IMG/VR virus record: IMGVR_UViG_2671180357_000004
Location: 1-25,327 of that record
Direction: 5' to 3' (one strand)
From: a virus
Taxonomy: Duplodnaviria; Heunggongvirae; Uroviricota; Caudoviricetes
Length of the DNA: 25,327 nt
Shown here: piece by piece, positions 6,357 to 7,055 of the stretch
Layout: each line of letters starts with the position of its first letter
Numbering within the stretch: position 1 is the first letter of the stretch
Position numbers and translations under genes: made by a program
Notes under the pieces: generated by a model
Told to the model about the DNA's origin: nothing
Seen by the model: the letters and a program-made list of their open reading frames with translations, nothing else
Database searches by the model: none

Positions 6357-6545
6357 TCAAAAGAACCCGAGGATGCCGCCCACTGGAACAATGAAAACTC
6401 CCACGACACGCGCAAGTGTCACTCCGGCATGAGACTGGAGATCGCCATCGTTCACAAGTTTCACCAGATTCATGATCCAGCCGCTAAACAAAAAAACGGT
6501 AAAGCCAACAATCATCAAGGTGAATTTCTGGAAGTTCCATTTCAT
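6357..6545 (-). CDS. Small membrane protein (62 aa, two predicted transmembrane segments)
   Basis: MKWNFQKFTLMIVGFTVFLFSGWIM...VVGVFIVPVGGILGFF; SD GAGG 9 nt upstream; start ATG overlaps the stop of the upstream ORF (ATGA). Confidence 0.5.
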   Translation of the reverse strand: MKWNFQKFTLMIVGFTVFLFSGWIMNLVKLVNDGDLQSHAGVTLARVVGVFIVPVGGILGFF

Positions 6546-6799
6546 ACAATAGCCTCAGTCACAGCAGAAGGAAGATCCGGAGTCGCAGGTCGAGCTGGAA
6601 TCGTGTCCATCAGCATCCCATCCAGAGAGACAGGAGGTCGTTCGGGCAGGGGTGTCATCTGCAAGGCTGTGGTGGCAGTGGAAGTAGCTGTGCCCGGCAT
6701 CAAAAGGCTCTGACCGGCTGGTACGGTAATCGCTGCCAGAGTTGCCAAAATCACTCCGTAGGCCATTGGCTTCAGTCGATTTCGTTGAAAATTTTCCAT
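6542..6799 (-). CDS. Hypothetical protein with signal-peptide-like N-terminus and Pro/Thr-rich C-terminus (85 aa from ATG at 6799)
   Basis: MENFQRNRLKPMAYGVILATLAAITVPAG...; strong SD AAGGA 9 nt upstream of ATG 6797-6799; stop overlaps next start. Lies in a different frame inside the 6555..7055 ORF. Confidence 0.45.
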   Translation of the reverse strand: MENFQRNRLKPMAYGVILATLAAITVPAGQSLLMPGTATSTATTALQMTPLPERPPVSLDGMLMDTIPARPATPDLPSAVTEAIV

Positions 6800-7055
6800 G
6801 AGAACTGTCCTTGTGTGTCCGGGTTTCACGCAACACACGAGAAGCGACGCTATTACGCACCTTCTCCATGCCTACTGTCGTGCCCAGATTAGCTATGGCG
6901 GTAGCTTGCGCATTAATGCGCTTCTCCAGTTCAAACACTCGTTCTTCCAGTTCCGCAAGGCGTGCGGAAACACGACCACTAAACAGCTCGGTCAGCACCT
7001 GGCGAATTGAACGGGGACGTTTATTGAAAGAAGTGAAAGACGTTTGACGGGCCAT
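6555..7055 (-). CDS. Hypothetical protein, N-terminal coiled-coil (166-aa ORF; C-terminal half of doubtful coding quality)
   Basis: ATG at 7053-7055; first 75 aa protein-like (LAELEERVFELEKRINAQATAIANLG), remainder Ser/Gly/Asp/Cys-rich and overlapped by the 6542..6799 gene in another frame. Confidence 0.35.
   Translation of the reverse strand: MARQTSFTSFNKRPRSIRQVLTELFSGRVSARLAELEERVFELEKRINAQATAIANLGTTVGMEKVRNSVASRVLRETRTHKDSSHGKFSTKSTEANGLRSDFGNSGSDYRTSRSEPFDAGHSYFHCHHSLADDTPARTTSCLSGWDADGHDSSSTCDSGSSFCCD

Follow-up and report, generated by a model that had tools for sequence, protein, structure and literature searches.

An apparent same-strand embedded gene pair, coupled to a small membrane protein gene, in SSU5-type phage-plasmids

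Do two overlapping reading frames on the same strand of a phage-plasmid both encode proteins, or is one of them an accidental by-product of the other? The question was raised by a 25,327-nucleotide (nt) stretch of DNA, IMG/VR virus record IMGVR_UViG_2671180357_000004 (Caudoviricetes), which as a whole is called the window here and whose positions are used for all coordinates. A preliminary description, made from the sequence alone, had noted on its minus strand a 166-codon open reading frame (ORF) with an 85-codon ORF embedded in another frame, the latter preceded by an AAGGA ribosome-binding site and ending on the start of a gene for a 62-amino acid (aa) two-helix membrane protein, with a Rha-like regulator beyond. 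Each of these features was found in place: the long ORF (f0; 7055..6555, 166 aa), the embedded ORF (f1; 6799..6542, 85 aa), which lies in the +1 frame and wholly within f0 but for its last 13 nt, the AAGGA site 8 nt from the f1 ATG, and the 62-codon ORF (6545..6357). The gene order on the minus strand is RNase H (7863..7198), f0 with f1 inside it, the 62-codon ORF and a Rha/antirepressor-like gene (6250..5435). Our comparison of relatives favours, with a probability of about 0.75, a genuine same-strand embedded gene pair under interleaved constraint, which together with a translationally coupled 62-aa gene would form a conserved three-gene module.

This region of the window had 89.9% nucleotide identity to Salmonella phage SSU5 (79.8–80.9 kb), and matches were found in 681 PLSDB plasmids from Klebsiella, Escherichia, Enterobacter, Salmonella and Citrobacter, nearly all of which were non-mobilizable and, where examined, typed as IncFIB or rep_cluster_488. 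Judged by these matches, the window is an SSU5-type phage-plasmid. The neighbours of the module are early/replication genes (thymidylate synthase, DHFR, exonuclease, methyltransferases and RNase H) and the module is part of the early minus-strand operon of SSU5-like phage-plasmids. For comparison, 91 related loci were gathered from annotated plasmids, IMG/VR, GTDB genomes and public assemblies, and all frame and selection analyses used the ~58 distinct sequences among them, which fall into 10 clades. The most distant relative (L084) came from an exhaustive hidden Markov model (HMM) search of 1.84 billion representative proteins, while a scan of genome contigs contributed just two close relatives. 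Three loci that the first filter had missed proved open in both frames as well, and the filtering therefore introduced no bias.

Both frames were open in all ~58 sequences, L084 included, except for two frame-swapping indel variants, and the conserved start Met of f1 was present in every relative; the third frame carried 3–11 stops in relatives. The openness of the +1 frame alone is not beyond chance, as this frame remained open in 20–77% of trials when the synonymous codons of f0 were resampled, and the test must therefore be comparative. In the reverse resampling, where the f1 protein was kept, the probability of f0 being open was 0.04–0.16 per lineage. We then counted as at risk those f1 codons that precede AA, AG or GA, where a synonymous T ending would create a stop in f0. 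A T ending was present in 0 of 28 distinct at-risk codon states compared with 33.5% at comparable sites, and lineages in which a T ending was harmless to f0 did have T-ending codons at these columns. By this codon count, the f0 frame is avoiding stop codons. The f0 stop itself does not shift among the clades: in each of them it precedes the f1 stop by 13 nt and has the context TGAGG or TAAGG (TGAGA in L032 and L038, TAAAG in L084).

Comparison of synonymous-site constraint in relatives, which the preliminary description had suggested, showed that both frames rather than a single one were kept in the 10 clades, each with suppressed synonymous variation. Outside the overlap, pairwise differences in f0 at codon positions 1, 2 and 3 were 0.33, 0.22 and 0.53, a normal coding signature, with synonymous difference (pS) of 0.61 (0.56–0.66), non-synonymous difference (pN) of 0.30 and a pN/pS of 0.49; the pS value of 0.61 was taken as the neutral reference rate. 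Within the overlap the three positions gave 0.38, 0.29 and 0.27 (bootstrap probability of position 3 equalling or exceeding position 1, 0.0012), and the change of pattern coincided exactly with the embedded ATG. Along the f1 hydrophobic segment (residues 12–26, MAYGVILATLAAITV; 6722..6766, minus strand; Kyte-Doolittle 2.07), f0 position 3 fell to 0.10–0.15 and f0 position 1, which is f1 position 3, stood at 0.40–0.46. Four-fold degenerate sites, scored in columns with a conserved amino acid, agreed with this picture: diversity was 0.55 (n=13) in f0 outside the overlap and 0.03 (n=7) inside it, and was 0.20 (n=9) in f1 (Mann-Whitney p = 0.0025 against 0.55). The dip is local, because the flanking 62-aa gene gave 0.65.

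Each site was also sorted by its effect in both frames in an OLGenie-like count. For the f1 start and hydrophobic segment (33 codons), the f1-synonymous rate was 0.51 and the f0-synonymous rate 0.14, indicating that f1 is strongly constrained here and f0 is a passenger. In the last 29 codons the corresponding rates were 0.30 (0.18–0.43) and 0.39 (0.27–0.51), so that both proteins appear constrained; this doubly constrained end (~28 codons; 6558..6641, minus strand) encodes CxSGWDxxGxD...CCD in f0 and xLDGMxxDxIP in f1. Between these parts, in a Thr/Ser/Pro linker, both rates depended on the alignment and no conclusion was drawn. An f1-guided alignment agreed for the start and hydrophobic part and for the last part, where it gave 0.27 and 0.30. 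Over the whole overlap the f1 ratio pNN/pNS, from differences classed by their effect in the two frames, was 0.64 (confidence interval 0.53–0.77). The suppressed-synonymous signal of f0, seen in f1-synonymous sites, was limited to the last ~29 codons.

The f1 frame is open from 6838, its ATG lies at 6799..6797 and its TGA at 6544..6542. Upstream of the ATG, the Shine-Dalgarno sequence AAGGA (6808..6812, minus strand) has a conserved GGA(G) core 8–12 nt away in all 10 clades, and the ATG is invariant. The PHROG family matching f1 (phrog_15659, E=6e-14) starts at a second Met (MAYG...), and since this Met is Ile in the L028 clade, 6799 was taken as the f1 start. From these signals, f1 is read as having an independent translation start. 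The encoded product consists of an n-region (MENFQRNRLKP), a 15-residue hydrophobic stretch, P-A-G, the variable Thr/Ser/Pro linker and a tail (S/T)LDGMxxDxIP. The signal-peptide-like N-terminus noticed in the preliminary description was evident as a basic n-region followed by 15 hydrophobic residues, a pattern found in all clades that agrees with the n/h criterion for Sec signal peptides, with conservative replacements (V/I/L/A swaps) in the hydrophobic segment. An AlphaFold2 model placed a helix at residues 3–24 followed by an extended tail. At the putative cleavage site V-P-A|G the -3/-1 rule fits, with Pro at -2, and other clades have I-P-T|G or I-P-S|T. A Sec signal peptide and an uncleaved signal anchor are equally possible, and in either case the tail would be periplasmic. 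One recombinant, L024 (IMGVR_UViG_2576861193_000004), is window-like up to ...SEPFDAG and then resembles the E. coli locus L007; its breakpoint lies inside the dual-coding region and both frames are intact.

If f1 were not a gene, the synonymous conservation of f0 would have to reflect an internal RNA structure or regulatory element. Consistent with such an interpretation, the resampling range for the +1 frame makes an open frame expected given the f0 protein, the NCBI Prokaryotic Genome Annotation Pipeline (PGAP) annotates f0 alone of the two, and the embedded protein is called in few databases (10 clusters). The conservation, however, is three-periodic in the phase of f1 over ~33 codons and the f0 four-fold sites are essentially invariant, which together with conservative replacements in the hydrophobic segment, an invariant ATG and Shine-Dalgarno sequence and a stop coupled to the next gene are features of a translated f1, and an Rfam scan of the window gave no hits. 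To the extent that comparative data allow, this interpretation is excluded, and we consider it scarcely credible.

The preliminary description had offered either an embedded pair or a frameshift fusion, and the frame-swapping variants bear directly on the second of these. In the P0017 variant, a 1-nt deletion (GACACCCC to GACCCCC) at approximately window position 6660 joins the f0 frame to the f1 C-terminus to give a 168-aa protein; it was found in loci L027 and L087–L091, including the complete plasmid CP101235.1, and in 132 index blocks. By this distribution P0017 is a real and successful lineage. Its flanks differ from those of the window, RNase H being absent on the upstream side and Rha on the downstream side. 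Programmed +1 ribosomal frameshifting, in which the functional product would be the coiled-coil N-terminus fused to the +1-frame membrane segment or tail, draws on the many database proteins that are f0-f1 fusions, whether joined at or before the f1 start (P0023, P0024, P0027 and P0041) or in the linker (P0017, P0019, P0029, P0039 and P0048), on the fixation of the P0017 fusion in a widespread lineage, and on the AAA-TTT-TCA that the window has at the f1 start, a site that would let tRNA-Phe re-pair at +1. AAA-TTT-T is, however, the sole slippery candidate and is not conserved across clades, the T-run being absent as such in L004 (AAATTATCAA), L003 (AAAACTTTCAAA) and L008 (GATCAATTTCAA). The f1 frame has its own invariant ATG and Shine-Dalgarno sequence, stops in this frame reach down to 9 codons upstream of the ATG, and the 0 frame is open for 81 codons beyond any candidate site, up to its conserved stop. 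Fusion junctions are also scattered and are accompanied by truncations from f0 into frame 2 (P0018, P0038, P0043 and P0045), as random indels predict. The natural fusion variants thus look like ordinary indels when their junctions are compared, and frameshifting appears very unlikely; of the two options offered earlier, the embedded pair stood, with both frames conserved, and the frameshift fusion did not.

The long protein f0 (phrog_10411, full-length match, E=3e-82) divides into two halves. Residues 1–85 are basic (net +7), and residues 86–166 are rich in Ser, Asp, Gly, His and Cys (net -6), which bears out an earlier remark on a coiled-coil N-terminus and a compositionally odd C-terminal half. 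Its AlphaFold2 model has a single long helix at residues 17–83 (predicted local distance difference test score, pLDDT, up to 91) with the tail predicted to be disordered; the f0 and f1 models are both of low confidence (mean pLDDT 54) except for these single helices. On the model, the N-terminal helix is probably a coiled coil. The tail comprises a Ser/Asp/Gly-rich spacer, a His cluster and a conserved end, C-x-SGW(D/N)-x-x-G-(H/C)-D...C-D, and the most distant relative retains both the C-terminal motif and the His cluster. No hydrophobic segment was found in f0 (maximum 15-residue Kyte-Doolittle value 0.78, no window >1.6). In locus L013 (IMGVR_UViG_2778261256_000006) a rearrangement has swapped the first ~27 codons of f0 for unrelated sequence, with f1 and the 62-aa gene intact.

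Several observations weigh against the embedded-pair reading. The whole-overlap f0 ratio pNN/pSN was 0.90 (0.71–1.18), which is not significant; estimates of selection in the linker shift between f0-guided and f1-guided alignments; and the case for the f0 tail consists of ~29 codons, stop avoidance and a motif overlapping at the nucleotide level with a conserved f1 motif. In a widespread lineage, the P0017 deletion eliminates the f0 tail and displaces that of f1, and the C-termini of f0 and f1 are therefore dispensable at least for plasmid persistence. Searches of Pfam, NCBIfam, PADLOC and PDB sequences with all three proteins returned no homologue of known function, the only hints being insignificant matches to SlyX-like coiled-coil proteins (E = 0.02–0.11), which were disregarded, and the shared ancestry of the clades makes the P values approximate.

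Several of these points could be explained if f1 and the N-terminal ~90 residues of f0 are functional and the 3' half of f0 is tolerated read-through without a sequence-specific role, open because few f1 residues have codons able to create f0 stops. Such an explanation accommodates the lack of constraint on f0 over the f1 hydrophobic segment, where the f1-synonymous rate of 0.51 is near the neutral 0.61, as well as the non-significant f0 ratio, the predicted disorder of the tail, a chance of 4–16% per lineage that f0 stays open when f1 is kept, which is not negligible, and the persistence of the P0017 lineage. It does not account for the absence of T endings from all 28 at-risk states against a 33.5% background, with T endings present in the same columns when harmless, nor for an f1-synonymous rate of 0.27–0.30 in the last ~29 codons, which equals the ordinary non-synonymous rate of f0 (0.30) and is half of neutral. 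The motif and His cluster kept in the most distant relative and the stop position fixed in all clades also speak for a tail under selection. We accordingly regard read-through as improbable, and a pair of genes that both encode functional proteins as the better explanation. Codon usage did not discriminate between the frames as a test of which is older (codon adaptation of 0.692 for the f0 tail vs 0.693 for f1), although both values exceeded that of the third frame (0.62).

The gene downstream of the pair (6357..6545, minus strand; phrog_6006, E=5e-20) was exactly 62 codons long in 8 clades and differed by 0.34, 0.20 and 0.60 at codon positions 1, 2 and 3, a normal coding signature; it was lost in two lineages. 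In the window the f1 TGA and the ATG of this gene (6545..6543) share the sequence ATGA, and the overlap is conserved across clades as ATGA, or as GTGA in Klebsiella, in line with the stop-start overlap reported in the preliminary description. The f0 stop TGA (6557..6555) is in turn fused to GAGG (6556..6553), the Shine-Dalgarno sequence of the 62-aa gene, within 6553..6557. Hydropathy gave two hydrophobic segments in the 62-aa protein, as had been described, and the protein ends in ...VGGILGFF with no charged or soluble tail in any clade, which suggests an inner-membrane two-helix hairpin. In Klebsiella NZ_CP079133.1 and NZ_CP075317.1 (L008 and L009), the 62-aa gene has a GTG start right after the f1 stop and its sequence is conserved; it is unlisted for these two in the gene table distributed with PLSDB, which is incomplete. 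A TerB-family gene, mostly together with a DUF3927 small membrane-protein gene, is inserted 5' of Rha in L003, L006, L007, L008, L009 and L084, after the 62-aa gene or the f1 stop, and this insert is absent from the window and from SSU5. From its varied occupancy in these sequences, the spot between the 62-aa gene or f1 stop and Rha appears to be a variable accessory slot.

Is the module, then, a lysis device composed of an Rz/Rz1-like spanin pair and a small holin or pinholin? Rz/Rz1 of phage lambda, like T7 18.5/18.7 and P2 lysB/lysC, are embedded two-component spanin genes. The f0/f1 architecture resembles that of Rz1 inside Rz, in that a small gene lies wholly inside a longer one in the +1 frame of the same strand with separate starts, its product is Pro-rich and predicted to be exported, and the outer product has a coiled-coil region; the two transmembrane segments of the 62-aa protein are also like those of class II holins. 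Unlike an i-spanin, however, f0 has no N-terminal membrane anchor or other transmembrane segment (maximum Kyte-Doolittle value as given above), and f1 has neither a lipoprotein signal nor, in most clades, a lipobox Cys, the Cys of the Klebsiella sequences (PDSC) being outside a lipobox context. No sequence similarity to the spanins exists. The 62-aa protein has its C-terminus (...GILGFF) in the membrane and lacks a charged tail, and the module is among early/replication genes rather than in a lysis cassette, with RNase H, methyltransferases and Rha or TerB as neighbours and no adjoining endolysin. SSU5 has its holin, endolysin, Rz-like spanins and Cor at 27.2–29.0 kb, some 50 kb from the module at 80.0–80.7 kb; the holin, endolysin and Rz-like genes of this cluster occupy 27.5–29.0 kb. 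A lysis function is hardly plausible on this evidence, and the holin-like role put forward in the preliminary description is disfavoured, as the canonical lysis cluster lies elsewhere and two defining holin features, a charged tail and an adjacent endolysin, are lacking.

Two other kinds of known arrangement invite comparison. Overprinted same-strand overlapping genes are familiar from small viruses, as in phiX174 E inside D and MS2 L, and from the viral overlaps that PMC8227390 reviews, and share with f0/f1 dual coding, reduced synonymous variation, one disordered and compositionally odd partner, a small membrane-directed product from the +1 frame and families that are equally narrow phylogenetically. 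In contrast to these, the host element is a double-stranded DNA (dsDNA) phage-plasmid of ~106 kb whose genome size is under no obvious pressure, the constraint is interleaved with no single frame dominant throughout, and codon usage is silent on age. Coupled pairs of small membrane-protein genes overlapping by ATGA are common in phage operons, and the f1 stop and 62-aa start conform to this pattern, conserved as ATGA or GTGA; unlike such pairs, the upstream partner is itself embedded in f0, whose stop is part of the downstream Shine-Dalgarno sequence. The f0/f1 pair is a previously unannotated case of a known class, same-strand embedded overlapping genes, and belongs neither with Rz/Rz1 nor with the small-virus family.

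Existing records reflect this only in part. PGAP annotated f0 in all relatives, and the SSU5 record and PGAP usually list the 62-aa gene but never f1. PHROGs has one family for each product, all labelled as of unknown function, so every one of the three ORFs must already have been predicted in at least one annotated phage; its entries do not record that two of these families overlap out of frame. Three word-indexed searches for homologues gave 10, 25 and 8 hits and the exhaustive HMM search gave 19, all of which belong to one narrow family, and all three families are confined to SSU5-like elements. A stand-alone f0 or f1 was not found in the word-indexed and exhaustive HMM searches and no outgroup lacks either frame, and the older frame is therefore not identifiable by phylogeny. 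A literature search found no paper describing the f0/f1 gene pair.

The module may be bounded by RNA structures on both sides. At its 5' edge, ~30 nt 5' of the f0 start, a GC-rich 9-bp hairpin (GCGGCTGGC-loop-GCCAGCCGC; 7085..7105, minus strand) is followed by AACTCTTTCT, with an invariant trailing sequence, AACTCTTTCTGACA. All 10 clades retain the stem around a loop that varies, and L028 carries a compensatory change (GCGGATGGC/GCCATCCGC). Lying between RNase H and the module, this hairpin may serve in termination, attenuation or RNA processing; it was covered by the Rfam scan of the window, which had no hits. A second small hairpin, GTTCCAGGATGGAAC, is located just upstream at approximately 7112–7130. 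Between the 62-aa gene and Rha, a weak hairpin (AAGGGC-TGCTGACG-GCCCTT followed by TTGT, a T run; 6271..6290, minus strand) was read from the sequence and may mark the 3' boundary of the module, although a terminator consensus scan did not report it. A scan for sigma-70-like promoters across 6100–7400 gave no site. Further 3', beyond Rha, a 199-aa ORF (4754–5353, minus strand) matched phrog_5508 over its full length (E=2e-101); it had no Pfam or NCBIfam family and relatives carry a hypothetical protein of ~190 aa.

How would two genes in one sequence work together? In the arrangement we propose, f0 would be a cytoplasmic protein whose coiled-coil-like helix is followed by a disordered spacer ending in the conserved His/Cys-rich acidic motif. 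Ribosomes would start f1 independently at the internal Shine-Dalgarno sequence and ATG (6812..6797) in the +1 frame, yielding a product whose Sec-type signal peptide or anchor would be followed by a Pro/Thr-rich tail in the periplasm. A ribosome ending f1, and possibly also one ending f0 10 nt upstream, would restart on the 62-aa gene, and the two membrane proteins would be made together because termination on f1 is proposed to feed initiation on the 62-aa gene. Constraint would be partitioned, with f0 serving as spacer alongside the signal or membrane segment of f1 and both proteins constrained in the last ~28 codons. Disorder in one partner is known to relieve the constraints of an overlap, and the f0/f1 pattern fits this (PMC8227390). 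The aligned sequences show conservation, selection acting on either frame, the signals for translation and the geometry of the coupling; translation itself, membrane topology, a partnership of f1 with the 62-aa protein and a biological role are inferred.

Regarding function, we favour, weakly, an envelope-directed accessory role for the module. Blocking the entry of superinfecting phage or its DNA, one of the roles raised in the preliminary description, is a possible but rather doubtful specific function. More improbable still is a fuller scheme in which the three genes together make up a hitherto unrecognised system of SSU5/pHCM2-type phage-plasmids that acts on the envelope, with superinfection exclusion or host takeover as a candidate role. 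Here a periplasm-facing Pro/Thr-rich peptide and an inner-membrane hairpin would act with f0, whose metal-binding-like His/Cys tail would regulate or partner them; embedding would enforce co-expression, and the recurrent frame-swapping indels would be functional variants and not decay.

In summary, SSU5/pHCM2-like phage-plasmids occur commonly among clinical Klebsiella, E. coli, Enterobacter and Salmonella, and a conserved protein predicted to be exported is missing from hundreds of their records because standard annotation lists the long ORF alone. Outside the spanins, f1 would be among the few well-supported embedded genes of a large dsDNA phage that are long (~250 nt) and out of frame, and the interleaved constraint in f0/f1 is unusually clear. 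Since knock-outs specific to one frame and silent in the other can be designed from the sequence, the pair may provide a tractable model of sequence sharing between two proteins.

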